A stretch of DNA of 64,000 bases from an uncultured candidate division WWE3 bacterium (lineage in GTDB: Bacteria > Patescibacteriota > WWE3 > UBA101185 > UBA10185), in assembly GCA_903879985.1 (NCBI GenBank), contig CAIRNR010000007.1, positions 216,079 to 280,078 of the forward strand, written 5' to 3'. The position numbers were made by a program, and so were the translations under genes. Under the pieces are notes generated by a model. The model saw nothing but the letters and a program-made list of their open reading frames with translations, was not told the DNA's origin and searched no databases. Shown in pieces: positions 19,446 through 58,691 of the stretch (the first letter of the stretch is position 1; each line of letters begins with the position of its first letter).

Positions 19446-19892
19446 ATGAAAAATATAATTCTAGTTCTAACAATTATTTTTGGAATATTAATTTATATGT
19501 TTAGTGTCGAAAAAATTCAGGTATTTTTGATAAACGGCGAATCAATGCAACCATTTTTTCAAAAGTATGCTGTAATTATTACTAAACAAAGCGACGTATA
19601 CCAAATTGGGGATATTATAAGTTTTAATAAATCTAATCAGGTTATTACTCACAGAATAAACGAAATTAAGCTGGCTTCAGGACAGGTTTTGTATTACACA
19701 AAAGGCGACAATAACGATGTAACGGATGATATGCCTCACTCAAAAAAAGAAATAATTGGTAAGGTCGTGTGGTTTTCAAATTTATTGGGTAACATTTTCA
19801 GTACACTGGTTATCGAAAAATATGGAATATTACCAGTTCTGGCTATATTAGGATATTTAACAGGAATTCAGCTAAAACGATTACTTATTTGA
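19446..19892 (+). CDS. Signal peptidase I, archaeal/ER-type (S26B, SipW-like)
   Basis: One N-terminal TM, the Ser box GESMQP, a His box (ITHRINE), and a C-terminal TM anchor. There is no Lys box, consistent with a Ser-His dyad SipW-type enzyme. Confidence 0.75.
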   Translation: MKNIILVLTIIFGILIYMFSVEKIQVFLINGESMQPFFQKYAVIITKQSDVYQIGDIISFNKSNQVITHRINEIKLASGQVLYYTKGDNNDVTDDMPHSKKEIIGKVVWFSNLLGNIFSTLVIEKYGILPVLAILGYLTGIQLKRLLI

Positions 19893-20640: not shown

Positions 20641-20696
20641 AGCCTAATTATAGCGTATGTATACTACTGTTGACCGATTTCTGATATCCTAATCAT

Positions 20697-23267
20697 ATGC
20701 AATCAGCATATTTACTGCCCCACCAGTTCTTGCTTTGGTGGCTTGTGTGGGCACCAAAAAGAATATTTAAAGTAGCAAAAAGATTCATTATTCTTGTTAA
20801 CAACAGCGTTTCCTTTACATTAAATATCAGACTTTTGTTTACTCCTCTGTTTGGAGACTACTCACTTGTCGGTCACTTTATAGGATTTTTCATAAGAATT
20901 TTCCAAATTATCCTTGGTTTAGTATTTCTTCTTTGCTTTACAGCAATTTCTCTTGCGCTGCCGCTACTTTGGCTGGCAATTCCATATTTTATATTTAAAG
21001 AAGGCAACATTGGATTTGTATTAATTTTCTTTGGTTTACTTTATGCATCTTGGTTCTTATATCACTTAGATAAACCAATAATTACTGCGAAACAAGCAAA
21101 CAAACTAAACTGGCATTTGGCAATGAAACCAAGCACACATACATTGGTAACAAAGTTTATGCAGGAACCTAATGCCGGATTTATAAAACTATTAGCACAT
21201 CCGGCAATTATTGCGCTTTTACGCAGATCCGAGCTATTATCAAACGAATTTATTGAAAAGATAAAACAAGCGCCATTAACACAAGTTGAAAACATTGGCG
21301 AAAAGGCACTGGATATTGCGAATTCCCAAGGCACCAAATACATAGAACCTGAACACATATTTTTAGCAATAGTATTAAATCTACCCAAAGTAGATGTTTT
21401 ATTCTCGACATTTAATCAAAAACCTGAATACCTCTCCGAAGCAGCTCATTGGATTATTCACAGCCGCGAAGCATTTAATAAGTTGTTTATTTGGCAAGAC
21501 GACTACGAAATGTTAATGATAGGTGGAATTGGTAAAGGTATGATCGGACATGTAACACCTCACTTGGATTTCGTTTCCACAGATTTCACAAAGGAAGTTG
21601 AACGCGGCCATGTTAAAAGAATGATTGGACGCGAAGCCGAAATTAAAAAGATTGCGGATATTCTAAATAATGAAGGAAAACAAAACGTTTTAATAATTGG
21701 CTCACCAGGAAGTGGAAAAACATCAATTGTTAAAGGCATCGCTTACAAGGTTATCGAAGGTACTGAATACAAAGCTTTACAAGGTAAACGAATCGTCAGC
21801 TTGGAGGTTGGCGGAATAATTGAAGGATCTAAAACGGCAGGGCAGTTAGCCGAAAATGTTAATCAAATAATGGCGGAGGTTAAAAGTTCCAGAGATATCA
21901 TTTTATTTATCGATGAGATACATAACCTTGTTGCGGGCGGTGGCGATAGCAATGCAGAAATTTCTACTATCTATTCCATTCTAGAACCACACTTGGCTTC
22001 ATCGGATGTTCAATGTATTGGCGCCACCTCAATTCCAAACTTTAGAAAATTCATTGAACCAAATGGTGCTTTCACAAGGTTATTTAACATTGTAGAAATT
22101 AATGAAGCTTCAAAGGAAGACACTTTGGAAATTTTAAAAGAAAAAGCTAGGGAACTCAGCTCGAAATTTGGAGTGGTAATTACATACCCTGCTCTTCTAC
22201 GCACAATAGAATTGTCTGAAAAATTAATTCACGAAAGAGTTCTTCCCGATAAAGCCATCGATATATTAACCAGAGCCATTTCCCGCGCAAGCAGTACCGA
22301 CCGAATTGTGGACTCCGAAGATATAGCCAAAGAAATAGCTGAAATAACGCACATTCCGGTTTCAGCTATAACCCAAGACGAAGCTCAAAAACTACTAAAC
22401 ATAGATCAAGACATGAACCATATGGTAATCGGACAAGGTGAAGCAATTAAACAAGTCTCCTCGGCTCTAAAAAGGGCCCGTACAGGCATGAGAAATGAAA
22501 ACAAGCCTATTGCTAGCTTCTTGTTTGTTGGAACCACAGGAGTTGGAAAAACACAAACCGCAAAAGCCTTAGCAAAATCGTACTTTGGCGACGCAAAAAA
22601 CATGATTCGCTTGGATATGAGTGAATATCAACAACTAGACAGCATGAGCAGATTAATAGGCTCACCTGACGGTTCCACAAAAGGCATTCTTACCGAACAC
22701 GTACGAACTAAACCATTTGCCTTAATACTTTTAGATGAAGTAGAAAAAGCCCACCAAAATATTTTATTAATGTTTTTACAAGTTCTTGATGATGCACGTT
22801 TAACCGATGCTACGGGAATGGTTATTGATTTCACAAACACAATTATCATTGCCACAAGTAACGTAGGAACTCGTGCAATTCAACAGGTCTTTGCCGAACA
22901 CGGCAACTTTGATCAAATGAAGGACGCCGCGATGAAAGATGTCCGCGAAAAATTTGCTCCTGAATTTTTAAACAGGTTTTCGGGCATTATCGTATTTGAT
23001 CCCCTATCTGTAGATAGCATTCGTCAAATAACACAGCTATTACTCGAAGACGTTAGAAAAGAAGCAGAACAAAAAGGAATTAAACTCAAATTTAAAGATG
23101 AGTTAGTTGATACATTAATGAAAAAAGGTTACAACCCAGAATGGGGCGCGCGACCAATGGCACGTGTTATTGAAGACACGGTTGAAACATATTTAGCCAC
23201 AAAAATGCTATCAAAAGAAGTTCAACAAGGTTCGGAATTATATTTGGGTAATGAGGTTTTCAACTAA
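20697..23267 (+). CDS. Clp/Hsp100-family double-AAA+ ATPase with an N-terminal membrane domain
   Basis: About 140 aa encoding 3 predicted TM helices, in-frame with a Clp_N-like repeat (EKALDIANSQGTKYIEPEHIFLAIVL). D1 carries Walker A GSPGSGKTS and Walker B DEIHNL. D2 carries GTTGVGKTQ and LLDEVEKAH. There is no long M-domain and no IGF/IGL ClpP-docking tripeptide. Confidence 0.85.
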   Translation: MQSAYLLPHQFLLWWLVWAPKRIFKVAKRFIILVNNSVSFTLNIRLLFTPLFGDYSLVGHFIGFFIRIFQIILGLVFLLCFTAISLALPLLWLAIPYFIFKEGNIGFVLIFFGLLYASWFLYHLDKPIITAKQANKLNWHLAMKPSTHTLVTKFMQEPNAGFIKLLAHPAIIALLRRSELLSNEFIEKIKQAPLTQVENIGEKALDIANSQGTKYIEPEHIFLAIVLNLPKVDVLFSTFNQKPEYLSEAAHWIIHSREAFNKLFIWQDDYEMLMIGGIGKGMIGHVTPHLDFVSTDFTKEVERGHVKRMIGREAEIKKIADILNNEGKQNVLIIGSPGSGKTSIVKGIAYKVIEGTEYKALQGKRIVSLEVGGIIEGSKTAGQLAENVNQIMAEVKSSRDIILFIDEIHNLVAGGGDSNAEISTIYSILEPHLASSDVQCIGATSIPNFRKFIEPNGAFTRLFNIVEINEASKEDTLEILKEKARELSSKFGVVITYPALLRTIELSEKLIHERVLPDKAIDILTRAISRASSTDRIVDSEDIAKEIAEITHIPVSAITQDEAQKLLNIDQDMNHMVIGQGEAIKQVSSALKRARTGMRNENKPIASFLFVGTTGVGKTQTAKALAKSYFGDAKNMIRLDMSEYQQLDSMSRLIGSPDGSTKGILTEHVRTKPFALILLDEVEKAHQNILLMFLQVLDDARLTDATGMVIDFTNTIIIATSNVGTRAIQQVFAEHGNFDQMKDAAMKDVREKFAPEFLNRFSGIIVFDPLSVDSIRQITQLLLEDVRKEAEQKGIKLKFKDELVDTLMKKGYNPEWGARPMARVIEDTVETYLATKMLSKEVQQGSELYLGNEVFN

Positions 23268-24921: not shown

Positions 24922-27219
24922 TTACTCTAAGGAATCAACCGGAAAATCTTCTTCGGTACTTATACCTTGATTATACCCGCCACCACTACCGCCTAATAAT
25001 ATATCACGCGTTTTACTTCCGCCCATGGAATGACCAATAATTCCCTTTTCTTCCATTTCATCAATAATTCTGGCAGCACGAGCATAACCAATCGACAATT
25101 TTCTTTGTAAAAGCGACGCTGAAGCTTTTCCTGCAGTCGAAATGATTTCAACAGCTTGATCAAATAACTCATCAACGTCCTCACCCCAAGTTGCTGAACC
25201 ATTAGCACCTTTTGTGCCTTTGTTAGCGGGCATTTGTAAAATATCATCTCGGTAATCTGTAGGCATACCTTGAGATTTCAAATAATTTACCAAGTTGTTA
25301 ATTTCTTTATCCGTGATGTTTGCTACTTGTAAACGAACAGGTTTTTGTACATCAGGTGGAACAAAAAGCATGTCTCCCTTACCTAAAAGTTTTTCAGCAC
25401 CTGGTTGGTCAAGGATGACTCGGGAATCTATCTGACTTGGTACGTTAAAAGCGGCACGTGTAGGAATATTAGCTTTAATCAGTCCTGTAATAACGTTTGT
25501 AGAAGGTCTTTGAACTGCCAAAATTAAGTGTATTCCTGTAGCACGAGAAAGTTGCGCCAAACGAATAATACTTTTTTCAACACCGGCAGGATCTTGAATC
25601 ATGATTTCGGCTAACTCATCAACGACCAAAACAATATAAGGCATCACTTGAATACCCGACTTTTCATTATAAGATTCAATGTTACGCACCTTGGCCTGTT
25701 CAAATAATTTGTATCTCTTTGTCATCTCATCTACCAGCCATCTAAACACCGAGGGCGCTCTATCCATATCCGTAACGACAGGTGTCAACAAATGAGGAAT
25801 ATCTTGGTAGTAACTCAATTCAATACGCTTTGGGTCTACCAATATAAGTCTAACTTCCTGTGGGGAAGCTCTAAACAAAATAGAGAATAAAATATTGTGA
25901 ATAAATACGGACTTTCCTGAATTGGTAGCTCCTGCAATAAGCATATGTGGCATTCTCGTAATATCGTAAACGCAGGTTTTTCCACCAACGTCCTTACCAA
26001 GACCAATAGCCAGTTTTGATTTAATGTTTTTCATGGCATCAGAAGTCATGATGGATTTAAAATAAACCATAGTTCTATTTGCGTTTGGAACTTCAATACC
26101 AATGTAAGGTTTACCTGGAATTGGCGCTTCTATTCTTACCGAACCTGTCGGAGAAGCTAAAGCCATGGCCAAGTCCTCATGCAAACTGGCGATTTTAGAT
26201 ACTTTTGTTACAGATTTAGTTAACAATGAATATTGTGTAACAGAAGAACCAACCAATGGTGGCACCATTATTTCAACATCAATTCCAAAAGAGCGTAAGG
26301 AATCTTTAATAATTTTAGATTTCTTTTCGGCCTCGCTTGTATCATGAACCTCAACAGGAGGCTCAATAAGTAAATCAAGAGGTGGTTCTTGCCATATTTT
26401 ATCAGGAGGAAGTCGCATAAATTCCAAAGGCGCAATCGAGCCTGATGGAGCTAATGTTGAAACAGTGTTATCTATTCTTGGCATATTTGACGAGAACTGA
26501 GGCTCTGATGGTGAAGGAATGACTTCAAAGTTCGCACCGGAATCTTCTTTAGCTGAAGAGAAAGTTGAGGTTGCTGGAGGACTCGTTGAGTCGTATGACG
26601 TTGACATACCTGACGTAATGCTTATATCGTCAGTATCATTTAGTACAGCACCTTTATCTTTTTTCAAAAAATTAAATTTACTTAAATCAATGTTGGCCGT
26701 AACTTTGGAAAAAAATTCGGCAATTTGCTCAAACGACATATCGAAAAGTAAAAATACAGCAATAAAAAGCACGATAAACAAAACAATAACTGCCCCATAA
26801 ATACTAATTGCACCGGTGAGCATACTAGAGATAGAATATCCAACCATTCCCCCACCCATGCCTTTTTCGGCTAAGGTATAAGCACTACTCGCAGGAGTAA
26901 ATACATGCAATAGACTTGCTAAACCAAGCAAAAGCATAGTTAACCCTGCAACCACGCGGGGTTCCTTGATTTTCATTTTAAGACTGGGAATAAAGAGTAA
27001 ACCAAAAATACCAATTAAAAATGGCAAAAATATCGCTGCACCGCCAAAATAACCTTTTAGTAAATGTTGTACTTGCGCGTTTAGTGCGTAGTTTGGCACA
27101 AAAAAGGATAATAAGCTGAGTAAAGCAAACAAAATCAAGCCTAAAGCTAGTAATGTTCTTGTAGTTTCGGGTTTTAAGCTGAAATTAACCTTAAATTTCT
27201 TTTTTCGTCCTCTTGGCAT
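24922..27219 (-). CDS. ftsK: DNA translocase FtsK/SpoIIIE
   Basis: N-terminal 4-TM domain, a linker, and the motor domain (IAGATNSGKSVFIHNILFSIL, LVVDELAEIM, C-terminal gamma wHTH). Confidence 0.93.
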   Translation of the reverse strand: MPRGRKKKFKVNFSLKPETTRTLLALGLILFALLSLLSFFVPNYALNAQVQHLLKGYFGGAAIFLPFLIGIFGLLFIPSLKMKIKEPRVVAGLTMLLLGLASLLHVFTPASSAYTLAEKGMGGGMVGYSISSMLTGAISIYGAVIVLFIVLFIAVFLLFDMSFEQIAEFFSKVTANIDLSKFNFLKKDKGAVLNDTDDISITSGMSTSYDSTSPPATSTFSSAKEDSGANFEVIPSPSEPQFSSNMPRIDNTVSTLAPSGSIAPLEFMRLPPDKIWQEPPLDLLIEPPVEVHDTSEAEKKSKIIKDSLRSFGIDVEIMVPPLVGSSVTQYSLLTKSVTKVSKIASLHEDLAMALASPTGSVRIEAPIPGKPYIGIEVPNANRTMVYFKSIMTSDAMKNIKSKLAIGLGKDVGGKTCVYDITRMPHMLIAGATNSGKSVFIHNILFSILFRASPQEVRLILVDPKRIELSYYQDIPHLLTPVVTDMDRAPSVFRWLVDEMTKRYKLFEQAKVRNIESYNEKSGIQVMPYIVLVVDELAEIMIQDPAGVEKSIIRLAQLSRATGIHLILAVQRPSTNVITGLIKANIPTRAAFNVPSQIDSRVILDQPGAEKLLGKGDMLFVPPDVQKPVRLQVANITDKEINNLVNYLKSQGMPTDYRDDILQMPANKGTKGANGSATWGEDVDELFDQAVEIISTAGKASASLLQRKLSIGYARAARIIDEMEEKGIIGHSMGGSKTRDILLGGSGGGYNQGISTEEDFPVDSLE

Positions 27220-29646: not shown

Positions 29647-30708
29647 TCAATGAGGCAGGTAATATTTAAGATTTTCAGCGGTCAATGTAACCGACTGGGA
29701 TTTTCCTTCAACAATTTCCTTTGCAACTTTACGACAAATAGATTCCAACGTTCTTCCTAAACTTCTGATTCCTGAATCATATCCAAACGGACGCACAATA
29801 CCTGGCCACAAATTTGGATCTATCAAGAGTTCTTCGTCTGTTAAACCGGCGTTTTCGCGAACCTTTGGGAAAATGTAGTCTCGAGCAATAACCATTTTTT
29901 CGTGATCAGAGTATGAAGGCATCTTTATGATTTCCATACGATCCATGAGTGCTGTTGAAATAGTACCTGTGTTGTTTGCAGAACACACAAACAAAACGTC
30001 AGACAAATCTGTTGGATAATCAACATAATAATCTCGGAAAGACTTATTTTGGTTTGGATCCAAGATTTCAAGCAAAACTGCCATGATATCCATTCTAAGT
30101 CCGGCCTCACCACTCGCTTTTTCAATTTCATCCAAAAGAATAAGTGGATTTCGTACGCCTGATGTCATCAAGCCCTTAATAATTTGTCCCGGCTCGGCCT
30201 CAGGAAACGCCTTACTTTTACCACGTAACTCAAGTGTCGAACCTAAACCTCCCATTGCAATACGGACAAATTCTCGACCCAAAGCTTCGGCCATGGAAAT
30301 AGCCAATGTTGTTTTACCAACACCTTGCAAACCTACAAAAAGTAAAATTGGTGAACGTGCGATAGCATCTTTTCCACGCTGTTTTAAAAGAATAATCGTT
30401 GAAAGGTATTCGAGAATACGTTCTTTAACATCTTCCATTCCGTAGTGGTTTTTATCAAGCAATCTTTTTGTTTCAGCCAAATCAAGGCGATCCTCAGTTT
30501 TTTTCATCCAAGGAATACTCGTAACAACTTCAATGTATCTGGAAAGCGTGTCGAACTCAGAAGCGTAATGACCAATAGTAGCCATTCTTTCAAGTCGCTG
30601 AATCATCTGAATCATACGACCTCTAAGATCTTCTGGTAATCCTGGAGTTTGATTTACGTGATCGGTGAGTGTTTTAAGTTCTTCAAATACAAATGTTTCT
30701 ACGGGCAT
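29647..30708 (-). CDS. Lon-family AAA+ ATPase module without the LON N-domain and without the S16 protease domain
   Basis: Aligns to E. coli Lon residues roughly 250-590 (IPWMKKTED...HYGMEDVKERILEYLS; Walker A GLQGVGKTT; Walker B LILLDEIEK; LMDRMEII). It ends at ...NLKYYLPH, where the protease domain would start. The next gene begins 9 nt later. Confidence 0.8.
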   Translation of the reverse strand: MPVETFVFEELKTLTDHVNQTPGLPEDLRGRMIQMIQRLERMATIGHYASEFDTLSRYIEVVTSIPWMKKTEDRLDLAETKRLLDKNHYGMEDVKERILEYLSTIILLKQRGKDAIARSPILLFVGLQGVGKTTLAISMAEALGREFVRIAMGGLGSTLELRGKSKAFPEAEPGQIIKGLMTSGVRNPLILLDEIEKASGEAGLRMDIMAVLLEILDPNQNKSFRDYYVDYPTDLSDVLFVCSANNTGTISTALMDRMEIIKMPSYSDHEKMVIARDYIFPKVRENAGLTDEELLIDPNLWPGIVRPFGYDSGIRSLGRTLESICRKVAKEIVEGKSQSVTLTAENLKYYLPH

Positions 30709-30788
30709 ATTTTAATTCTATCATCTGAGATGATCTGTCGCTAGGCAACAGACCATCCGAGATTTTAAGTTACGAGATAAGTCTAGAA

Positions 30789-33438: not shown

Positions 33439-34086
33439 CTAAATACCCGCTTTATACATAGCACCGCCCAATAAAGCCTTAGCAGCTCTGCGGTCTAGGT
33501 TTAAACCCCAAATTCCAAAGGTATTAAGTATTAAAAGACTGAGATTTTCCTTTGAAATATCGATTAAATTTACCTTACCGTACTTTGTATTTTTATCAGT
33601 ATTATCAATGTTTACAACAGTTGCCTCTTTTAAATTAGCTTCCATATCTGAATATGTTTGTCCAAGATCCTCTAAGGTCTGAGAACCAATTACAAATATA
33701 AGGTCGAAGTCAAAACCCTTTAAACTGGATGTTATCTTTGAGAAATCAAAGTTTTTGCTCATGGGACTTAAGGTTAGGTATAAAACGTCGTTTTCAGTTG
33801 TGTATTGAACTTTTGAAGCTGGAGTATTTGAATAGTCAACGGCTACAACAAGCTCGCGTCTTCCTGTATCAGCGGTTAATTCTTCTCTTGAGATGATGTC
33901 GGGAAACTCATCCGGTGTTTTACCGGGATAAATTAAGGAAACATTCTTTTCAGCGTTTTTTAAAAGGTAGTAAAGGCCAACACCTGCAGCATATGCTTCA
34001 GGACCGGCAAGTTTTGACGGTATAACAGCTATTCTCTTGGCTGATGCTAAAAGCTCAGCAATTTGATTCTTTTCTTCTGTATTCAT
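33439..34086 (-). CDS. Degenerate DHH-family (NrnA-like) domain protein that lacks the catalytic DHH motif and the DHHA1 domain
   Basis: Collinear with B. subtilis NrnA residues roughly 10-210 ([25 protein letters not shown] vs [20 protein letters not shown]; [15 protein letters not shown] vs KAAELIYAGIVGDTG). However, DHH is replaced by DNT and DPD by GPE. The syntenic position matches nrnA downstream of the infB/rbfA cluster in other bacteria. Confidence 0.4.
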
Positions 34087-34174
34087 AGTTAAATTGGGCT
34101 GAAATTGGTTTACGCCGGTATTGTACCCGAATAGCCCTATAGTGTCAAATCGCGAGGCTGCGTGACAAAAAGAA

Positions 34175-34217
34175 AAGACTCCGATGAACCAGCAGTTTTG
34201 CGGTTGATCGGAGTCTT
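34175..34217 (-). terminator. Intrinsic terminator: perfect 11-bp stem, 21-nt loop, T-run on the minus strand
   Basis: aagactccgat...atcggagtctt is followed on the minus strand by tttctttttg, immediately 3' of the 253-aa gene. Confidence 0.6.
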
Positions 34218-34226
34218 ACATAACCA

Positions 34227-34988
34227 TTACTTTGTGATCTGCATAGATCCAAAGCCCTTCAAATTCTCTGCCAAAATATAAACATCGGGCAGCATTTCAA
34301 GAAACTTATCACTATCGCCAAAAGGGGTTTCGCCAAAGGAATTATTACCATCCTTGCGAATTCCTCCAACAAATATGCGTCCATCTTCCCGACGAAAGGC
34401 CACTGTTACAATCCCAAATTCGGCGTCGTTCCAGTTTTTAAAGTTCTCTTCCCAAATGCTTTTTGCGTCATTGCGTAAGCATGCCGCAATTTCTCCCAAA
34501 CGTACCCAGACAAAAGTACAATCTGGAATTTCCTTCAGCTTTACGCTATGCAAAAGCTTACAATGTATGGATAAAGTATTTACTACCTCCGTTTTCATAG
34601 CGGGGGGCTGCCGTCGGTGCGAAATCCCTAAGCGAGATAAAAATCGCTTCCAGGTGTATTTGCTAAATAAGCCTGGAGTTTCATTCACAGCGCCAGCAAA
34701 CTCAAGCATACGAATATGCAGTTCTAATACATCGGCCACAACTGGACCTTTGACTTCTATAATATAAACCCGTTCTTGATTCAGGTTATAGTCAATGCGC
34801 CCAATTCCGAGTGCGGTATTAAACGCGTAAACCCGGGAAACTTGATTGGTATAGGGCATTATCGTTAACCCGCTTAAACGTAAACCTTTTTCTAGGATAA
34901 AATCCCTTACAGGCGATGTGGTCAACACACATTTTGTTGAACCATCATCAGAAACTAAAATCCATGACTGTGTCATGATTCTCTCCAT
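34227..34988 (-). CDS. Hypothetical cytoplasmic protein (253 aa); possible PD-(D/E)xK-like motif
   Basis: No TM helix. GC and codon usage are richer in CTG/CGC/GCG than the flanking ribosomal genes. GRIDYN...(13 aa)...YIIEVKG resembles a D...ExK nuclease core, which is speculative. It has its own terminator. Confidence 0.45.
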   Translation of the reverse strand: MERIMTQSWILVSDDGSTKCVLTTSPVRDFILEKGLRLSGLTIMPYTNQVSRVYAFNTALGIGRIDYNLNQERVYIIEVKGPVVADVLELHIRMLEFAGAVNETPGLFSKYTWKRFLSRLGISHRRQPPAMKTEVVNTLSIHCKLLHSVKLKEIPDCTFVWVRLGEIAACLRNDAKSIWEENFKNWNDAEFGIVTVAFRREDGRIFVGGIRKDGNNSFGETPFGDSDKFLEMLPDVYILAENLKGFGSMQITK

Positions 34989-35113
34989 TTTTGATCCGCC
35001 ATAACTTTGTTACGGTCGGTCTATTTTCTCACCGCGTGAGATTTGATTTCTGGATTATAGGTTAAACATAGCGAAAGTGCAAACCCATAGCATTGAGAAC
35101 TGGCAGAATTAGG

Positions 35114-35162
35114 CGCAAAAAAAGGCAGCTTGTGTTCCTGGCGGGGAAGACAAACTGCCTTT
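35114..35162 (-). terminator. Intrinsic terminator (8-bp stem aaaggcag/ctgccttt, then a T-run on the minus strand)
   Basis: Located 7 nt downstream of the stop of the 211-aa membrane-protein gene. Confidence 0.55.
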
Positions 35163-35168
35163 ACTGAC

Positions 35169-35804
35169 TTAATCTAACTGTGTATCACTTCGGGTATAAA
35201 TTTTACCATCGACTTTTAATACGAGTAATCCCTGATTATATTGCGTTTCATGATCCAGGGTTACCACAAACTGCGTATTGATGAGCGCACCTTCGATTTT
35301 GCTTTGAATAAGCTTAGTCGCATCTTTCATGTACAAATGTACGCGAGCTTCCTTAAGCAAAATTCTGATTTCACCGGATGCGGTTTTTCCATCAATCAAA
35401 GCTTTTGTAAAATCGCTAATCGCCTTGTTCAAACCACCACTCCAATGCAACTGTGTTGATACAATATGCATTTCGCAGCGGTAGTGGATATATGCACATA
35501 TTGGCTGGACAGTCATGAGCAATAAGCCAGCTACACATATGACAATAACTATGCCAAAGACAATCATCAAAAACATCTCGTACAGAGTGCCCTTATTGTC
35601 TGGCATAGTGTCAATGGTAGACCACACAAATAATCGCATAATACTGACCAACACGATCATCAGCGGAATCATGCGAATCGCGCCTGGTGTATTGAACTCG
35701 GTCCAATAAAACTTAGGAAAACTAATCATCACATACCTATCCTTCTGCCCTAACGGCATCATCATATTTTTATTGGGTTTGATAGGCCTAACGCCTCCGC
35801 CCAA
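35169..35804 (-). CDS. Hypothetical membrane protein: 2 TM helices plus a roughly 110-aa C-terminal soluble domain (bacterial PH-domain-like architecture)
   Basis: TM helices at roughly aa 40-63 and 76-110. The C-terminal domain is of unknown function. It has its own promoter, operator and terminator. Confidence 0.5.
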   Translation of the reverse strand: MGGGVRPIKPNKNMMMPLGQKDRYVMISFPKFYWTEFNTPGAIRMIPLMIVLVSIMRLFVWSTIDTMPDNKGTLYEMFLMIVFGIVIVICVAGLLLMTVQPICAYIHYRCEMHIVSTQLHWSGGLNKAISDFTKALIDGKTASGEIRILLKEARVHLYMKDATKLIQSKIEGALINTQFVVTLDHETQYNQGLLVLKVDGKIYTRSDTQLD

Positions 35805-35926
35805 TTTTTGAGTGCTTGAACCATTCGGTTTTTAAAGAGCTTTCCGCCAAAAGCCTCATACAAGCAAACTGCGCTCCATAGCGTTGTGAAACGCAAATTG
35901 CCTGTATGAATACTAAAGGGGAAATA

Positions 35927-35982
35927 TTTGTATTCCATTGGAATACAAAGGAATTATGCTCCAAATCGTGCTTTTTGTCAAC
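35927..35982 (-). promoter_or_regulatory. Sigma70-like promoter (TTGACA-18-CATAAT, minus strand) immediately followed by a 23-bp perfect palindrome (operator candidate)
   Basis: The minus strand reads ttgaca aaaaagcacgatttggag cataat, then tcc, then tttgtattccaAtggaatacaaa. The palindrome has 11-bp arms around a single central base and spans about -6 to +17. It lies about 120 nt upstream of the 211-aa gene. Confidence 0.45.
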
Positions 35983-36053
35983 CTATAGCATTTATATCTG
36001 AGGCAAACGATATTACTACTCAATATCTAGAAAATGGAAAATTATTTGGAAAC

Positions 36054-38824: not shown

Positions 38825-39763
38825 TTAATTCTTCAAAAACTCTTCCAACAACTCTTTTTGCTTCCTATTTAACTTCTTTGGCGTGACAACGGCAACCTGA
38901 ACCAGCACGTCACCTTGTCCTTTTGATTGCAACCTTGGCATACCTTTGCTTCTAATAATAAAACGAGCGCCATAATCGGTACCAGCTGGGATTTTAAGCT
39001 TCGCAGAACCTATTCCGGTTTTTTGCTCTAAATCGATAACAGGAACTTCAATAACACCACCCAAGGCGGCGGTAGCAAAATCAAGCTCTTTTGTAACAAC
39101 TAGATTATCGCCGGAAATATTAAATTGCTGAGGTTTTTTGATTCTTAATGTTAAAAACAGATCACCTGTCACTGTACCTTGTGGACCAGGCATACCGCGC
39201 CCAGGAAACTTGAGTTCTAGGCCATCACGCGCTCCCTGTGGAATCTTTACAGTAAACTTGCCACTTTCTACATTGATTTCTTTTTCGGCGCCAAATATGG
39301 CTTCAGCGAATTCGACGTTTAATTCGTAATATAAGCTTTTACCTTTGTGAGGAGCTCGTCGGCCACCTGCACCACGAAATCCAAAGAATTCTTCGAAAAT
39401 ATCAAAAGGATCAAAATCACCAAAGTCCTGACCTGCACCATTGGCACCACCGTTTGAAGTGTAAGAATAGTTAAAAGGACCCCACTGGCCACCAGCACCT
39501 GGGCGTTGACCTTGCCCAAAGCCACCCATGTTTGGATCGGCAGTACCGTAGGTATCAAACGTTTTTCTTTTTTCGGGATCACCTAAAACGCGATATGCCT
39601 CGTTTATTTCTTTAAAGCGTTTTTCAGCCGCTTCTTTATCACCGGCACCTACGGCATCAGGATGATGTTCTCGTGCTAGTTTGCGATATGCTTTTTTTAT
39701 TTCTTCAGCGGAAGCTGTTTTTGATACGCCTAATATGTTGTAGTAGTCTTTTCCGTTTGCCAT
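38825..39763 (-). CDS. DnaJ-class chaperone without the Cys-rich zinc-finger domain (CbpA/type II-like)
   Basis: J-domain (DYYNILGVSKTASAEEIKKAYRKLAREHHPD, with HPD), a G/F-rich linker, and a C-terminal substrate-binding domain. No CxxCxGxG repeats. Confidence 0.85.
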   Translation of the reverse strand: MANGKDYYNILGVSKTASAEEIKKAYRKLAREHHPDAVGAGDKEAAEKRFKEINEAYRVLGDPEKRKTFDTYGTADPNMGGFGQGQRPGAGGQWGPFNYSYTSNGGANGAGQDFGDFDPFDIFEEFFGFRGAGGRRAPHKGKSLYYELNVEFAEAIFGAEKEINVESGKFTVKIPQGARDGLELKFPGRGMPGPQGTVTGDLFLTLRIKKPQQFNISGDNLVVTKELDFATAALGGVIEVPVIDLEQKTGIGSAKLKIPAGTDYGARFIIRSKGMPRLQSKGQGDVLVQVAVVTPKKLNRKQKELLEEFLKN

Positions 39764-39776
39764 ACAGTGTGTATTC

Positions 39777-39795
39777 TATCACCTACGGTGATCGG
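39777..39795. promoter_or_regulatory. 19-nt dyad TATCACCTACGGTGATCGG (copy 1), 13 nt upstream of the dnaJ-like ATG
   Basis: Identical 19-mer to 47377-47395. The inverted repeat is ATCACC-TAC-GGTGAT, and the GTGATAGAAT part doubles as an extended -10 box. Confidence 0.5.
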
Positions 39796-39847
39796 TCGCC
39801 AAAGGCAACAGAGCACGTTAAGTGGGTTGATTAGTGGGTTTTTGTGA

Positions 39848-39889
39848 CAAAAAAAGACCCTGATAAGTTGGTTTGCTTATGCAGGGTCT
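39848..39889 (-). terminator. Intrinsic terminator (8-bp stem agaccctg/cagggtct, 19-nt loop, 7-U run on the minus strand)
   Basis: Directly 3' of the 154-aa gene. Confidence 0.55.
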
Positions 39890-39902
39890 TGCTTACTATT
39901 TT

Positions 39903-40367
39903 TTATTCGTAACCACGGTGACCGTTATATTTCTCGGTGTGGTAACGAACTTGGGCTTCAACTTCTTCGGGCGGTTCTTCGTCAGGGTCTTGTTCGGCAT
40001 TGCGAGGATCGCCTTCAGTATATGCGGCATCTTCTAACGCAGCCATTTCCCATCGCCAAACAGCAGCATCAATCTGGGTAGCAAAACATCGAAGTTGACC
40101 TTGCGGATCCCGCGGAAGCTTTTTAAGCGTAACAACAGCTGTGGTATCAGTCCAAACAATATCATTGAAAATCGGGCTGATCACACTTTTCGTACCTTCC
40201 ATATCCCTTGTATTTGGATGTAGTGTTATCCACAATTGTACGGGATCAATACTATCGCGAAATCCCATCCAGCCAATATTTCCCTGATCTAATGTGGTCC
40301 ATTCTTCTCCTAGCGGAGCTTTACGATTCTTTGGGTGCACTATAACCTCTCTCTTTCCGTATCGCAA
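39903..40367 (-). CDS. Hypothetical protein (154 aa) with an acidic C-terminal tail
   Basis: Elevated GC. Own promoter (TTGTGT-17-TACAAT on the minus strand at about 40406-40434) and own terminator. No recognisable domain. A 5-bp inverted repeat gtatc...gatac abuts the ATG in place of an SD. Confidence 0.5.
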   Translation of the reverse strand: MRYGKREVIVHPKNRKAPLGEEWTTLDQGNIGWMGFRDSIDPVQLWITLHPNTRDMEGTKSVISPIFNDIVWTDTTAVVTLKKLPRDPQGQLRCFATQIDAAVWRWEMAALEDAAYTEGDPRNAEQDPDEEPPEEVEAQVRYHTEKYNGHRGYE

Positions 40368-40455
40368 TTGATACGCGCAACTTTATTAGTCAGCTGTTGC
40401 TAGCTCTGATTTGTGGTGATTGTAGCAAAAATCCGATGTTTACACAAGCTATAGG

Positions 40456-40484
40456 TTGACTGAAGTTTGTTAAGGATATACAAT
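40456..40484 (+). promoter_or_regulatory. Strong sigma70 promoter TTGACT-17-TACAAT
   Basis: ttgact at 40456-61, a 17-nt spacer, tacaat at 40479-84, about 36 nt upstream of the SD and ATG of the 97-aa gene. Confidence 0.55.
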
Positions 40485-40520
40485 GCTGAAAATAGCCAGA
40501 TAAACCAAAAGGAGAGAAAA

Positions 40521-40814
40521 ATGGCACTTAAAGGAACAATGATCTTAAACGGTCACTACAACATCACGCAGGCACCATCGCTGGATGACATAGTAGGTTC
40601 ATTAATATCAGCGGGTGCAAATCGGAAGTCACTGAGTTTTATCACAAGCACGGGATTAATCATCCGCAATGTGGCTATAAAGTCATTAGCTCGCGAAGAT
40701 GGCTCAGGCAAACGGTATGTATTCGAAGGCGAATTCGTCGGAACTGCCGGAACAATAAAAGGCTATTTTGACGTCGCCAACAGGGTGGGATTCTGTAACA
40801 TCACAGTAGAATAA
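40521..40814 (+). CDS. Hypothetical small protein (97 aa from the ATG preceded by AAAGGAGAGAAAA)
   Basis: Good SD. The longer ORF from 40467 lacks an RBS. Probably a beta-rich protein with no recognisable family. A terminator follows. Confidence 0.5.
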   Translation: MALKGTMILNGHYNITQAPSLDDIVGSLISAGANRKSLSFITSTGLIIRNVAIKSLAREDGSGKRYVFEGEFVGTAGTIKGYFDVANRVGFCNITVE

Positions 40815-40937: not shown

Positions 40938-40991
40938 CCCAATGTTTTTAATCGACTCAAAATTTAAATCGAAAAAGTCAGAAAGATTACT

Positions 40992-41258
40992 TTACAGCAT
41001 CTTCATTCCTTTACCGGCTTTAAAAGCTGGAGTCTTACTTGCTGGGATATGGAGAGGAGCTCCGGTCTGTGGATTTCTTCCCATTCTTGCGGCTCTGGAT
41101 CTAACTTCGAATGTTCCAAATCCTGTCCAGGTTACTTTTTCACCTTTTTGCAATGCTGCGGTTACTGCGTCAGCTACTGCATCAACGGCTTTAGCGGCGT
41201 CCACTTTTGTCATTCCTGCCATATCGGCTACTTTAGCTATTAAGTCTTGTTTTACCAT
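40992..41258 (-). CDS. hup: DNA-binding protein HU
   Basis: [11 protein letters not shown]...[38 protein letters not shown] is the HU/IHF fold signature. Confidence 0.92.
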
Positions 41259-41292
41259 TTATAAAACACCCCCTTTCAAATCAAAAATTTAA

Positions 41293-45763: not shown

Positions 45764-45908
45764 ATGTATAAACCTTCCCGGTTAGATAAATGTGAATGCA
45801 AAACATAAAGTGTTTAGCAAACGCATATAAGTACCTTTTCTTTAGTACGCTACTAAATTTATTTTATTTAAATACGTGTCTGTAGCAAGGACAAGTATTC
45901 TAATTTTA

Positions 45909-47363
45909 TTAGAGGGCAGATTTAATACGATCTAAAGATTCTTCCCGACCCAAAACTTCTAAGATATCAAAAATATGTGGCGTTGCAGTTTGACCTGAAA
46001 GCGCAACACGTAATGTCATGAAAGCTTCCTTCGGGCTATATTCGTATTTTGTAATTAAATCATGGCACACTTTTTCCAAATTGTCTCTAGTCCAATTTTC
46101 TTTTTGAGTAATTTCCAAAGTATTATAAAAATTATTTAGAATTTCTTTTGTGCGCTCTTCGGATTTTGTATATGAAATCAACATTTCTTTTTTTACTTCT
46201 GGTTTTGAATAGAAATAAGAAATCAAATCATTTACTTCACTAAACTTTTTAAGTCTTTCTTTTATCAGAGCTACAACTTTAATATCGATTTTGTCATCTC
46301 CTGAAAAGTTAAGTTTTATCTCAAACCTTTTTGCCCAAGCTTTTATTTTATCGAAAAGGACATCATCACTTAAATTACGAATATAATAACCGTTAAACCA
46401 AAGTAACTTGTCGCGATCAAAGGCAACTAAATCTGTTTTTTGAATTCTCTCTAAAGAAAAATCATTTATAAATTCATCTAAAGTGTAAATTTCTTTTTCG
46501 GTACCAGGATTCCAACCAACAAACATTAAAAAGTTAACAAGCGCTTCTACCAAATAACCTTCTTGCAAAAAATCGACCGCAGCAACAGCTCCCTGGCGTT
46601 TACTTAGTTTAGCGGCTGATCCTTTTTCTTTTAAGTTAGGTAAGTGCGCAATTATAGGCATGTCCCAACCTAAGAATTTGTAAATCAAAACATGCACTGG
46701 TGAAGAAGGCATCCAGTCGATTCCGCGCAAAACGTGTGTAATTTTCATTAAATGATCGTCAACCATTGCGGCTAAGTGGTAAGTAGGAATTCCGTCGGAT
46801 TTTAACAAAATCATATCGTCAACGTCGTTAGTATTAAAGGAAATATCACCATGAATAGCGTCGTGTAATACTACAGTTTCATTCGCAGGAATTTTTATTC
46901 TAATAACATAAGGAACTCCGTCCTTAAGATTTTTTTCAACTTCTTCCTTTGAAAGATTTCGACAATGCTTGTCATAGCATGTTTTTGGCAAATGCTGAGC
47001 TTGTTGCTCGGCTCTAACTTGATCTAATCTTTCGGGAGTGCAAAAACAGTAGTATGCGCCGCCTTTTTCAATAAGTTCTAATGCATATTTTTTATATATT
47101 TCTAATCTTTGGGTTTGAACATAAGGTTCGTAAGGACCACCAATGCCTGGACCTTCATCCCAACTAAAACCGTAGTCTTTTATAATCTGCAACGTTCTAT
47201 CGGCAGCACCCTCAACAAATCTATTTCTATCTGTGTCTTCAATACGGACTATAAATTGTCCATTATATTTTTTGGCAAACGCATAGTCATACAAAATGGT
47301 TCTCATGTGACCGATATGCAGTTCTCCTGTTGGACTTGGAGCTATTCTTGTTCTGGCAATCAT
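45909..47363 (-). CDS. gltX: Glutamyl-tRNA synthetase
   Basis: Class I HIGH (PSPTGELHIGHMRT) and KLSKR (KMSKS-like) motifs. Confidence 0.95.
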   Translation of the reverse strand: MIARTRIAPSPTGELHIGHMRTILYDYAFAKKYNGQFIVRIEDTDRNRFVEGAADRTLQIIKDYGFSWDEGPGIGGPYEPYVQTQRLEIYKKYALELIEKGGAYYCFCTPERLDQVRAEQQAQHLPKTCYDKHCRNLSKEEVEKNLKDGVPYVIRIKIPANETVVLHDAIHGDISFNTNDVDDMILLKSDGIPTYHLAAMVDDHLMKITHVLRGIDWMPSSPVHVLIYKFLGWDMPIIAHLPNLKEKGSAAKLSKRQGAVAAVDFLQEGYLVEALVNFLMFVGWNPGTEKEIYTLDEFINDFSLERIQKTDLVAFDRDKLLWFNGYYIRNLSDDVLFDKIKAWAKRFEIKLNFSGDDKIDIKVVALIKERLKKFSEVNDLISYFYSKPEVKKEMLISYTKSEERTKEILNNFYNTLEITQKENWTRDNLEKVCHDLITKYEYSPKEAFMTLRVALSGQTATPHIFDILEVLGREESLDRIKSAL

Positions 47364-47376
47364 ATATCTTGGATTT

Positions 47377-47395
47377 TATCACCTACGGTGATCGG
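47377..47395. promoter_or_regulatory. 19-nt dyad TATCACCTACGGTGATCGG (copy 2), 13 nt upstream of the gltX ATG
   Basis: Identical to 39777-39795. GTGATAAAAT, the same 10-mer found upstream of secA, sits 9 nt before the ATG. Confidence 0.5.
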
Positions 47396-47431
47396 CGACT
47401 AGTGTCGCAGATCAGTTTAACAGTATGAGCG

Positions 47432-56882: not shown

Positions 56883-58691
56883 CTAGATCTTGTTTAATTT
56901 TTTTGCTAATGCCCACGTTTCATCAAGAAGTGCGGATATTTCATTTAAACCTTTGTCCCAAAAACTTTTGTCGGCAATATCAATTCCCATTTTTAAAAAA
57001 GTAGCGCGCGGAGATTCTGAAGTACCGGCACTTAAAAATTCTTTAACCTTTTCTATATCTTTTGGATTTTGTCTCACCATATTTTGCAAAGATTTTGATA
57101 TCAGTAAACCGCTTGCATAAGAATACACATAAAAAAATCTTCTAATATGCATCCAATAAACCCACCAATTTTCACACCCTGTAGTTTGCTCAACAAAATC
57201 TCCCATGTACGCATGCATATGTTTTGAAAATAATGCGCCAATTTCTTCTTTTGACAGATATCCTTTTTCTCGGTAAGCCGTATGCAAAGCTTGCTCAAAT
57301 TTATAGCAGGCAACCTGTCGAACAATTGAAGAAATATCGTCGTTTATTTTTAACATGTTCAAATTCAACCGTGTTTCCTCAGACATTTCTTTTGAAAGTT
57401 CCATCAAGGAGAAGTCTTCCATAAATGTACTTGCGACTTCTGCTGTAGCAACAGAAGTTCCGCAGTTTAACGAATTTTGCTTAGTTTTTATTAAGGTATC
57501 GTTTATCGCATGACCCATTTCATGAGCGAGCGTGGTTACATCTTGAATCCGACCTGTGTAATTTAGCAAAACAAAAGTTGGAAGTGCTTTTGCAACGTCC
57601 ACACAAAAACCACCATTTTCTTTTCCTTTATTTGGATATACATCTATCCTTCCTTCTTTTAAAAATGTTTCGAAAATATCTAAAAAGGAAGTGTCTAGTT
57701 TTTTAAAAGAATCTGAAACTATTTCCAAACCCTTTTCAAACGGAATTGTTTCTGAATTATCACCAATCTCAACATTGCGTTCGTGATACTCTAATTTCTC
57801 TTGACCTAAAAATTTAGCTTTTAATTCGTAAAACCTTGCAGAAATGTCATAACTCTTTTCAACGCTTTCCAATAACGCATCCACAACTTCGGGTTCAATA
57901 TCATCTCCGAGTAAAGTTAAAAAATCTGGACGTGTAATTTTTCTTAAATCGTCTACGGTTTTATGTACTTCCAAAACAGAGTTAAGTTCTCGTTCGGCAA
58001 CATCCACATACTTTTGAAGAATCACGTTAAAGGCACTTGCGGCCGAATCTCTAACCTGTTTGTTTTTATTCGACATCAACGAGCTAAGTTCAGAAAATAC
58101 TTTTTTTGTTTCCTTGCCATCTTCATCTAAAACAACAGCCTCTTCTCTGCTTAAAAACTCCTCAGTCATTTCTACCCAGTTTGAATAAGCGGGCTTCATC
58201 ATTAAATTAAGTATCTTCTCTTCTTCCTCGGACAAAAGGTATTTCGCGTCCTTAAATGAGGATTCCAGTAAGTGTTTATAAGAAACTAATTCTGGTGAAT
58301 TTAAAAATAAATCCTGTTTATCAACCGCAATCTTGGAAATCCTATGCATAAAAAAACTTAAATCGTTTGCCTGTTTTACCCCAAATTCATCCATTTTGTT
58401 TGCCAAAGCCTTTAAATCTGTGGCTTCCTGGTCTAAAGCACGTCTTAACCAAAAGTAATAACCAACCTTACCTCCGGTAACTCCCTCTGATTCCATAACC
58501 TCAAACTCGTCCAAAGCCTCCTTTAATACCGCTGGATCCTCTAAATAGTCGGTTCTATCCTTCCATTTAGCCACAAAAGCCTTATTTCTATTAGCAATAG
58601 CTTCCTTGGTTTGCTCTATTATAGGGTCGTTATCCCCGCTTAACAGTCCGGAAAGGTCCCACGAGGTTTTTATATTTGCCTTATCTAACAT
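56883..58691 (-). CDS. pepF: Oligoendopeptidase F (M3B family)
   Basis: HEMGH zinc motif (LAHEMGHAIND) with a downstream E ligand, 602 aa. Confidence 0.9.
   Translation of the reverse strand: MLDKANIKTSWDLSGLLSGDNDPIIEQTKEAIANRNKAFVAKWKDRTDYLEDPAVLKEALDEFEVMESEGVTGGKVGYYFWLRRALDQEATDLKALANKMDEFGVKQANDLSFFMHRISKIAVDKQDLFLNSPELVSYKHLLESSFKDAKYLLSEEEEKILNLMMKPAYSNWVEMTEEFLSREEAVVLDEDGKETKKVFSELSSLMSNKNKQVRDSAASAFNVILQKYVDVAERELNSVLEVHKTVDDLRKITRPDFLTLLGDDIEPEVVDALLESVEKSYDISARFYELKAKFLGQEKLEYHERNVEIGDNSETIPFEKGLEIVSDSFKKLDTSFLDIFETFLKEGRIDVYPNKGKENGGFCVDVAKALPTFVLLNYTGRIQDVTTLAHEMGHAINDTLIKTKQNSLNCGTSVATAEVASTFMEDFSLMELSKEMSEETRLNLNMLKINDDISSIVRQVACYKFEQALHTAYREKGYLSKEEIGALFSKHMHAYMGDFVEQTTGCENWWVYWMHIRRFFYVYSYASGLLISKSLQNMVRQNPKDIEKVKEFLSAGTSESPRATFLKMGIDIADKSFWDKGLNEISALLDETWALAKKLNKI

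Follow-up and report, generated by a model that had tools for sequence, protein, structure and literature searches.

A self-pairing module joined to the extended -10 promoters of a dnaJ-like gene, gltX and a Lon-like gene in an uncultured WWE3 bacterium

An inverted repeat that overlaps a promoter is a known kind of bacterial element, and the described examples include the lambda cI/Cro operators, which are 17-bp dyads with the consensus TATCACCGCCGGTGATA, the controlling inverted repeat of chaperone expression (CIRCE) of HrcA (TTAGCACTC-N9-GAGTGCTAA), which acts at both the DNA and the RNA level, and the HspR-associated inverted repeat (HAIR; CTTGAGT-N7-ACTCAAG). A different class of short palindrome, the repetitive extragenic palindromic (REP) sequences, is usually very abundant, lies at 3' ends or between convergent genes and carries a GTAG-type tetranucleotide. 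To our knowledge, almost nothing is known of transcription control in the Candidate Phyla Radiation (CPR, Patescibacteria), whose genomes are tiny and hold few recognisable regulators. Here we describe, in a 64,000-nucleotide stretch of DNA from an uncultured candidate division WWE3 bacterium (contig CAIRNR010000007.1, positions 216,079 to 280,078, GC content of about 37%; the whole stretch is called the window below), a self-pairing module that is joined to the promoters of a dnaJ-like gene, the glutamate--tRNA ligase gene gltX and a gene for a Lon-like AAA+ protein.

The closest structural precedents are hairpins formed by DNA itself. The mini-hairpin DNA GCGAAGC is extraordinarily stable, with a melting temperature (Tm) of 76.5 C; such motifs are reported at sites where replication and transcription begin, and GNA triloops characterise DNA more than RNA (PMC13037366). 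The promoter hairpins of phage N4 have a 5-bp stem and a 3-base loop (PMC13037366) and, being GC-rich inverted repeats with a C:G closing pair and a loop that begins with 5'G and ends with 3'A, extrude at or below physiological superhelical density (-0.035; PMC4496689). When an N4 hairpin was placed between the -35 and -10 elements of rrnB P1, promoter activity was abolished, and the gyrase inhibitor novobiocin restored it (Dai et al. 1997; PMC4496689).

Anatomy of the module and nature of its 3' half

The sequence TATCACCTACGGTGATCGG was found exactly twice on the plus strand of the window, at 39777-39795 and 47377-47395, in both cases upstream of a minus-strand gene and with a gap of 13 nt to its ATG, as an earlier note on this DNA had reported. 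No further copy with up to 3 mismatches was present in the window and none arose in 100 dinucleotide-preserving shuffles; the sharing of the 19-mer by two unlinked genes is not random. Within the 19-mer lies the dyad ATCACC-N3-GGTGAT (6-3-6); in the sense direction (minus strand) each of the two sites is CCGATCACC-GTA-GGTGATA(G/A)AAT, followed by 9 nt and the ATG, and the dnaJ-like and gltX sites are alike over 35 nt at 83% identity. Two further claims of the earlier note also held: by direct count, 14 of the 17 positions of 39777-39793 agree with the lambda consensus, and the dyad overlaps an extended -10, its 3' arm entering TG-A-TAGAAT at the one gene and TG-A-TAAAAT at the other. The note was right about the dyad and had overlooked a third, diverged copy, a second hairpin further upstream, the additional pairing partner r1 and the generic nature of the 3' half.

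The 19-mer is the tip of a self-pairing module of 42-44 nt joined to the promoter. Its shared plan consists, in order, of r1 (xxTGnTC(T)), a GC-rich hairpin of 5-7 bp (HP1), r2 ((C/A)GATCAxx), an NNA loop and r3 (xxTGAT), where the TG of r3 is the TG of the extended -10 and its last T is position -12. The r2 segment can pair either with r3, giving a mini-hairpin (hp2) of 6 bp with a 3-nt loop, or with r1, closing an imperfect palindrome of 26-33 nt around HP1. Counted from the promoter, hp2 spans -17 to -12, the r1:r2 alternative -55 to -21 including the -35, and both stems together about -55 to -12. The features at the three loci are:

39773-39816, minus strand: whole module of the dnaJ-like promoter, GTGCTCT (r1), GTTGCC-TTT-GGCGAC (HP1), C, GATCACC (r2), GTA, GGTGAT (r3), running into TAGAAT
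39778-39792, minus strand: mini-hairpin hp2 of the dnaJ-like promoter, ATCACC-GTA-GGTGAT, the core of the 19-mer, loop C-GTA-G
39795-39809, minus strand: hairpin HP1 of the dnaJ-like promoter, GTTGCC-TTT-GGCGAC, the sense strand showing a single G·T wobble
39810-39816, minus strand: r1 of the dnaJ-like promoter, GTGCTCT, which can pair with r2 CGATCAC at 5 of 7 positions as the alternative to r2:r3
39773-39781, minus strand: extended -10 of the dnaJ-like gene, TG-A-TAGAAT, followed by 9 nt and the ATG at 39761-39763
38825-39763, minus strand: dnaJ-like gene for a DnaJ/CbpA-type J-protein of 312 amino acids (aa) with J domain and DnaJ_C and without zinc finger
47373-47414, minus strand: whole module of the gltX promoter, TGATC (r1), T, GCGAC-ACTA-GTCGC (HP1), C, GATCACC (r2), GTA, GGTGAT (r3), running into TAAAAT
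47378-47392, minus strand: mini-hairpin hp2 of the gltX promoter, same sequence as hp2 of the dnaJ-like promoter
45909-47363, minus strand: gltX, glutamate--tRNA ligase (GluRS), followed by recA and recX in all relatives
30715-30757, minus strand: third, diverged module, promoter of the Lon-like AAA+ gene, GATGGTC (r1), TGTTGC-CTA-GCGACA (HP1), GATCATC (r2), TCA, GATGAT (r3), running into TAGAAT
29647-30708, minus strand: Lon-like gene for an AAA+ ATPase of 353 aa with Lon lid domain and no protease domain, 72-89% identity across WWE3 (in some sources the protein is labelled 'ATP-dependent Lon protease')

The DNA fold of the dnaJ module gives two adjacent hairpins, and the 3' arm of its HP1 lies at the -35 position (TTGGCG, then an 18-nt spacer). 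At the Lon-like gene r1, HP1 and r2 together fold into one 13-bp hairpin, and TAGAAT is followed by 6 nt and the ATG. A stem of 6 bp with a loop of 3 nt was found in all five promoter-fused copies, three in the window and two in a relative described below. Counting every copy of hp2, seven in all, five have loops of the form C-GNA-G (C-GTA-G three times, C-GAA-G twice) and the other two read C-TCA-G and T-TAA-G. The anatomy of the module and the promoter identity of its 3' half are firm.

Judged by the other gene starts, the downstream half of the dyad (GTGATA-R-AAT) is a generic promoter element of this organism, because -10-like hexamers recur near starts across the window and GGTGATANAAT is commoner there than expected. 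A -10-like hexamer was found 4-12 nt before the start in 23 of 57 genes, compared to 21% for randomly chosen positions, and most often at a distance of 6 nt; it lies exactly 6 nt from the start in 10 genes, often with an extended TG and without a Shine-Dalgarno sequence, and a clear GGAGG was seen in a minority of genes (for example 15486-16403 and rny). Allowing one mismatch at most, GGTGATANAAT was observed 19 times in the window against 5 expected. As only 9 nt separate the -10 from the ATG, the dnaJ mRNA would be near-leaderless. Other near-leaderless genes are exemplified by:

19885-20640, 24922-27219, 56883-58691 and 62096-63334: genes with a -10 hexamer near the start

Distribution, base pairing and copying of the module

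Of the 715 kb of the window's genome about 72 kb were read, together with about 37 kb from one informative relative, the contig L001 (also handled as L206), whose GluRS is 67% and whose Lon-like protein is 89% identical to those of the window; the corresponding values for L003 (also L207) are 69% and 85%. Among named homologues, those nearest to the window's GluRS and Lon-like proteins come from candidate division WWE3 / Patescibacteria. The gene order gltX-recA-recX-rny-ymdB-HU-dnaJ-nusA-infB...pnp-lonL is conserved in WWE3 relatives. The gltX, dnaJ-like and Lon-like genes of L003/L207, L084, L085, L086, L208 and L209 carry, at 6-9 nt from the ATG, a (T)GTG-n-TA-n-AAT box or a TATAAT-like one. 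In five or six other WWE3 genomes, none of these genes was found to have an upstream arm complementary to it. Outside the window's genome the dyad was found only in L001, at gltX and dnaJ. What is new in this lineage is therefore the 5' arm together with the sequence upstream of it, and the absence of the upstream half from related genomes, which the earlier note had named as evidence against its own reading, was seen in all relatives but L001. No further copy of the module lay within about 4 kb beyond each window edge, the exact 19-mer had 0 matches in viral contigs, and BLAST of the dnaJ module against phage records gave none. A metagenome scan for CCGATCANNNNANNTGATARAAT returned at least 119 matches, and among the matches listed all were unrelated or coding, with the candidate L154 proving random.

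In L001 the mini-hairpin reads ATCATT-TAA-GATGAT at gltX and ATCAGC-GAA-GCTGAT at dnaJ. These two modules have been kept at orthologous sites since the split at 67% GluRS identity, a divergence that is saturated; L001 dnaJ retains CCTTTGGCGACCGATCACCGTAGGTG as in the window (26/26 nt), and the regions upstream of gltX and dnaJ are about 0.70 identical in the two genomes, where the median for other genes is about 0.55. The Lon-like module is absent from the orthologous promoter of L001, which reads tttcTGATAGAATaaaaccATG.

Pairing was retained where the sequence changed. Pairing-competent occurrences of ATCAxx-N3-xxTGAT numbered 3 in the window, each of them on a -10, against 0.39 in shuffles (both strands). 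Over the seven copies, pair 8-14, which is next to the loop-closing pair, is C-G in 3, G-C in 2, U-A in 2 and unpaired in none; the outer four hp2 pairs are essentially invariant, with one T.T at pair 5-17, and the closing pair shows one U·G. Of the alignment cells, 97.6% were paired, and the observed covariation score was reached by 1 of 500 shuffles; sliding the partner by 1-2 columns lowered pairing to 14-33%, and by 3 columns to 50-60%. The third segment follows as well, with the r1 base facing the pair-8-14 position of r2 tracking its changes in 4 of 5 modules (G-C, A-T, A-T, C-G). TGnTCTG is kept in 4 of 5 modules, and r1:r2 pairing is retained in all five and used by RNA minimum free energy (MFE) folds in four, with MFE values of -14 to -25 kcal/mol in 4 of 5. 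HP1 is paired everywhere, and its sequences and arm order differ, being GTTGCC/GGCGAC at the dnaJ-like and Lon-like genes versus GCGAC/GTCGC at gltX. By the author's tally the positions on the sense strand that are not Watson-Crick comprise about 6 G·T and 1 A·C.

These changes suggest that base pairing, rather than a sequence bound by a repressor, is the conserved feature. A simple reading is that the promoter fixes TGnT in r3, that pairing in turn fixes ATCA in r2 and TGAT in r1, and that position -16 drifts and its partners follow. The conservation of ATCA/TGAT would thus be explained without a protein, because promoter constraint and complementarity suffice.

The module has also been copied. 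The Lon-like and dnaJ modules are identical in 32 of 41 aligned columns (hand count), including the non-stem TCTGTTGCCT, plus GCGAC, and as the Lon-like module resembles that of dnaJ and is absent from the L001 orthologue, it arose by copying within the lineage of the window. At L001 dnaJ, a hairpin-rich insertion of about 78 nt (by count) splits the hairpin after GGTG and ends in ...CCGATCAGCGAAGCTG directly before ATAGAAT, so that a new half-hairpin re-forms the stem on the -10; the 109-nt stretch comprising the insertion and its flanks gave a z of -5.7. The r1 of the window's gltX module (ACTGATC) does not match gltX's own r2/r3 variant, and this mismatch suggests that the dnaJ copy replaced hp2 of gltX; such a replacement would explain why the 19 nt are exactly identical. 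That identity is best read as copying (gene conversion) between module copies. Putative mobile promoters (PMC3575422) resemble this situation in having near-identical upstream sequence before non-homologous genes of one genome; they differ in that here the -10 pre-existed at each gene, because relatives have it without the upstream arm, and it is the upstream structured segment that was added or copied.

A separate stretch with some likeness to the dnaJ module was seen upstream of a gene for a ClpB-type ATPase (20697-23267):

20667-20690, plus strand: possible decayed copy at the clpB-type promoter, uncertain, CTGTTGACCGATTTCTGATATCCT, sharing CTGTTG, ACCGAT and TGATA with the dnaJ module, without stems and with weak resemblance

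This may be a collapsed fourth copy on a proteostasis gene, or a coincidence; the clpB-type orthologues in L206 and L207 have only TTGATATCCT and TTGATATGCT upstream, respectively.

A cis-acting structure and its competitors

We tentatively favour the reading that the module is a cis-acting nucleic-acid structure that sequesters promoter DNA, possibly in a supercoiling-dependent manner. In its favour stand the covariation, the alternative r1:r2 and r2:r3 helices, the retention of HP1 as structure and the bias of the wobbles towards G·T on the sense strand. The r2:r3 mini-hairpin would bury positions -17 to -12, and the long r1:r2 hairpin or cruciform would enclose HP1 and cover -55 to -21, including the -35. 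Its most likely form would be extrusion of a DNA hairpin or cruciform under negative supercoiling, which would withdraw the DNA from the -35 to -12 from RNA polymerase, and relaxation or heat would restore the duplex promoter. No sigma-70-type promoter was detected on the sense strand upstream of the modules and r3 is a conserved -10, so the dnaJ and gltX modules would lie outside the main transcript, which argues for DNA rather than RNA as the acting molecule. Two of the three genes, dnaJ and the Lon-like gene, serve proteostasis and would fit a stress-linked switch. A more specific version of the cis-acting structure, which we regard as rather unlikely in this full form, is a topological switch independent of any protein, in which extrusion of mini-hairpin DNA (CCGTAGG/GCGAAGC) would swallow the extended -10 and so gate near-leaderless sigma-70 promoters, the r1:r2 cruciform would be the competing state, and copying of the cassette between promoters would build a set of genes responsive to supercoiling or temperature.

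The precedents for such a structure are close in form. Like the N4 hairpins, those described here have a stem of 5-7 bp and a 3-nt loop, with C:G closing a G..A loop (C-GTA-G, GCGAAGC) in five of the seven copies, and like the rrnB P1 construct of Dai et al. (1997) they lie in the spacer of a sigma-70 promoter. The N4 hairpins, however, are recognised by a phage single-subunit RNA polymerase and the rrnB P1 case was engineered, whereas the 3' arm of the present module, which is known from sequence, is the natural extended -10 of cellular genes, and the module adds HP1 and the alternative partner r1. The mini-hairpin motif d(GCGAAGC)/d(GCGNAGC) is represented inside the stems by GCGAAGC, twice in L001, and CCGTAGG, twice in the window; its known cases are phage and plasmid single-stranded DNA origins and the N4 promoters, whereas the promoters here are cellular sigma-70 ones. 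The combination of a 3' arm that is an extended -10, a covarying inner stem with an alternative partner, mini-hairpin loops and copying between promoters appears to be undescribed for cellular sigma-70 promoters.

Several points weigh against a cis-acting structure. The sample is small, with three loci from about 72 kb of a single genome plus two from a relative, and the hp2 covariation amounts to one base pair with about three independent changes (plus r1). The middle and proximal copies of L001 are mutual duplicates, and the two identical window copies may reflect one conversion event. The outer ATCA/TGAT and the 26/26 nt at dnaJ are kept as sequence, as a protein site would likewise predict. 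Stems of 6 bp are marginal for cruciform extrusion, the DNA z-scores are unremarkable (-1.16 for the dnaJ module, +0.16 for the L001 gltX module), and two of the loops (TCA, TAA) are not GNA.

It is possible, though doubtful, that a dimeric helix-turn-helix (HTH) repressor of the lambda cI/Cro, XRE or HspR/HrcA kind binds GATCA-N7-TGAT and blocks RNA polymerase at a small regulon of the J-protein, Lon-like AAA+ and GluRS genes. The site lies at the classical position (-29 to -12), has the 7-3-7 geometry and the 14/17 identities of a lambda operator, keeps its outer ATCA/TGAT essentially invariant in seven copies, and is identical over 19/19 nt at two genes and, at dnaJ, over 26/26 nt in two genomes; of the three target genes two belong to proteostasis, and an XRE/RstR-like HTH protein is encoded in the window (17746-18060). 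Independent reading of half-sites by a symmetric dimer does not, however, predict that inner positions change on both sides and that r1 follows, nor that HP1 is kept as structure and not as sequence, and the invariance of ATCA/TGAT is already explained by promoter constraint and pairing. The dyad is moreover absent from five or six relatives that have the same genes and promoters, and the gene set differs between the two carrier genomes, the Lon-like copy not being in L001. The small repressor-controlled regulon proposed in the earlier note thus keeps its overlap with the -10 and its non-random sharing, and has against it the promoter nature of the 3' half, the paired changes, HP1 and the unstable gene set.

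Neither regulator that might be named finds backing. The XRE protein at 17746-18060, which the earlier note had put forward, is unsupported as the regulator, since its own promoter is without the dyad and no other link to the modules was found. The ORFan gene at 39903-40367 (gene A) is the immediate upstream neighbour of dnaJ in the two genomes with the dyad and is not at that position in others, and its product shows no DNA-binding fold: a search of 1.8 billion representative proteins gave only 5 relatives, Pfam and PHROG gave no match, its AlphaFold2 (AF2) model (predicted local distance difference test, pLDDT, 72) gave no significant PDB match, and a third homologue adjoins a tRNA gene and has no dyad. 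On these grounds gene A is likewise unsupported as a regulator.

The likeness to lambda cI/Cro operators extends to the geometry, the identities and the overlap with the promoter. The dyads here differ in standing singly before core syntenic genes, with no tandem operators, no neighbouring repressor gene and no prophage context; no dyad lies near the only HTH gene in the window (17746-18060), neither the 19-mer in viral contigs nor the dnaJ module in phage records has a match, and the half-sites are mutually complementary at the variable pair 8-14, with r1 covarying. CIRCE and HAIR likewise are inverted repeats that overlap chaperone and protease promoters, and the HAIR spacer is also N7. Neither matches in sequence, and both are phylum-wide with an unconstrained spacer, whereas the module occurs in just two of the sampled genomes and retains pairing in its spacer; conservation at chaperone genes of the CIRCE/HAIR kind was not found, the module being absent at the dnaJ-like or Lon-like genes of L003/L207, L086, L208 and L209.

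That the module is a palindrome of the REP/bacterial interspersed mosaic element (BIME) or miniature inverted-repeat transposable element (MITE) type, or a by-product of template switching or gene conversion, which spreads by copying, is tolerated at or directed to the TGAT of promoters and has no dedicated regulatory role, the hairpin being needed by the copying machinery or by single-stranded intermediates, seems unlikely to us as the whole account. The copying described above speaks for it, both in the Lon-like module, which agrees with dnaJ in 32/41 columns down to non-stem bases and is absent in L001, and in the L001 insertion of about 78 nt that splits the dnaJ hairpin and rebuilds its stem on the -10. 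In the same direction, r1 and r3 resemble a short direct duplication flanking an inserted segment, the G·T positions fall on the sense strand, which negative GC skew and gene orientation mark as the presumed lagging-strand template, and the element is lineage-restricted and fast-changing. Yet all copies (three window loci, two L001 loci) sit exactly on a -10 box although most TGAT sites of the window lie elsewhere and none of these has a copy; the gltX and dnaJ copies are kept at orthologous sites across saturated divergence; no transposase or gene resembling a REP-associated tyrosine transposase (RAYT) was recognised among the window open reading frames (ORFs); and the module, at about 35-40 nt, is shorter than known MITEs and palindrome-associated transposable elements (PATEs). 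With REP/BIME sequences and their RAYTs, and with the hairpin ends of IS200/IS605 insertion sequences, it shares the form of a short extragenic imperfect palindrome, G·T wobbles on one strand and copying within the genome; it differs from REP/BIME in that each copy is fused to a -10 box, in having three copies in about 72 kb and in the lack of a transposase among window ORFs. The cis-acting structure and a REP-like origin are not mutually exclusive, and both can hold.

We consider it improbable that the module acts as an RNA switch, in which transcripts started upstream or reading through would carry an r1:r2 versus r2:r3 switch, thermosensor- or attenuator-like, that controls how a leadered mRNA isoform is stabilised, processed or translated. 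RNA switches typically have helices that exclude each other and covary in three ways, the wobbles on the sense strand would be G·U, and the folding energies in 4/5 modules given above would suit such a role; the Lon-like copy is also probably transcribed, because it lies 80 nt past the pnp stop codon with no terminator between. At the other two loci, however, the dnaJ module is preceded by a separate canonical terminator hairpin (39849-39890) and the gene upstream of gltX is divergent. The lack of a detected upstream sense promoter counts against the switch too, as does the identity of r3 with the -10 of a conserved promoter, by which the main transcript would start downstream of the module. 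Neither fold reaches the AUG and there is no Shine-Dalgarno sequence to sequester, the GNA triloops are more distinctive of DNA (PMC13037366), and a search of the window against Rfam 15 gave no match at the gathering threshold and only chance-level matches at E up to 10.

Chance similarity of two AT-rich promoters, to which the generic TGATAnAAT part of the match would lend itself, is very improbable given 0 occurrences of the 19-mer in 100 shuffles, 3 pairing-competent copies against 0.39 expected, and a module kept with compensation at orthologous L001 sites. The secA and ftsK promoters have the same TGATAnAAT without the module, a further point against the cis-acting structure.

Other identities were tried and rejected. 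The three modules have no T-run and no terminator-like site, which excludes an intrinsic terminator. A Shine-Dalgarno/anti-Shine-Dalgarno hairpin does not fit, as GGTGAT ends 14 nt (at the Lon-like gene, 11 nt) before the ATG and GATGAT and GCTGAT are not Shine-Dalgarno-like; r2 (GATCACC) resembles the 3' tail of 16S rRNA at a spacing that is wrong for such a role. The 7.6 kb between the 19-mer copies is core, syntenic DNA, unlike the interior of an attL/attR pair, and recA's own upstream region has no dyad, contrary to a LexA/SOS box. CIRCE, HAIR, the DnaA box, parS and the Fur box gave no sequence match. As to a Dam/GATC methylation switch, GATC is mildly under-represented (170 observed, 216 expected) and r3 has no GATC.

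Neighbouring observations and promoter use in WWE3

Gene A belongs to a divergent two-gene ORFan cassette (A/B) that lies between HU and dnaJ only in the dyad-bearing genomes (window 39903-40814, L001 16540-17464); genes A and B encode 154 and 115 aa in the window, and 122 and 100 aa in L001. Ahead of gene A, the 5' leader CAAATCAGAGCTAGCAACAGCTGACTAATAA(A/T)GTTGC is near-identical between window 40377-40413 (minus strand) and L001 about 17030-17066 at a protein identity of about 40%, and a similar leader occurs at the third homologue (L212, about 395-430). With its GCAAC...GTTGC stem, this leader could act as a small RNA regulating in cis. In the region 33439-36053, another two ORFans (35169-35804 and 34227-34988) are inserted between infB and a conserved 215-aa gene by comparison with L207, in which infB and the 215-aa gene are direct neighbours in that order; in L206 the place is taken by nothing more than a 106-aa ORF. 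The sequence CTATAGGTTGAC is found at 35977-35988 (minus strand) and, by the gene A/B cassette, at 40449-40460 (plus strand), and also in L001, which hints that the inserted ORFan cassettes are related.

A perfect hairpin, TCTCAC-GCG-GTGAGA (6 bp, 3-nt loop), at 35023-35041 (minus strand) runs into AAAAT with the pseudo extended -10 TGAGAAAAT; it lies 34 nt upstream of the ORFan at 34227-34988 and has an hp2-like layout in another sequence. The 116-aa ORF at 40942-41292 (plus strand) is an artefact opposite the real HU gene at 40992-41258 (minus strand), whose 88-aa product is 84-97% identical in relatives.

Two other promoter regions of the window are conserved. A fully canonical promoter, with TTGACACTATAGG and, about 12 nt further on, TA(C/A)AAT, was found at 34136-34148 (minus strand) before an unannotated gene of about 215 aa, and is kept in five WWE3 genomes (the window, L206, L207, L208 and L209) upstream of a 213-218-aa gene before rpsO; it shows that a TTGACA -35, too, is used by the sigma-70 of this clade. 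The block TAGAATACTTG(T/G)(C/T)CTTGCTACAG at 45895-45930 (minus strand; L001 about 11464-11500) straddles the end of gltX upstream of recA and is probably the recA promoter and the start of its leader.

Near-leaderless expression from extended -10 promoters is widespread in the window, which is useful for the annotation of start codons and promoters in WWE3. If a repressor binds the module, the element would mark a very young regulon and define its operator. If instead the cis-acting structure that we tentatively favour is true, the module would be a natural case of an effect whose sole demonstration so far used an engineered N4 hairpin in E. coli, and would offer a cheap route for recruiting genes to a stress response without a transcription factor.

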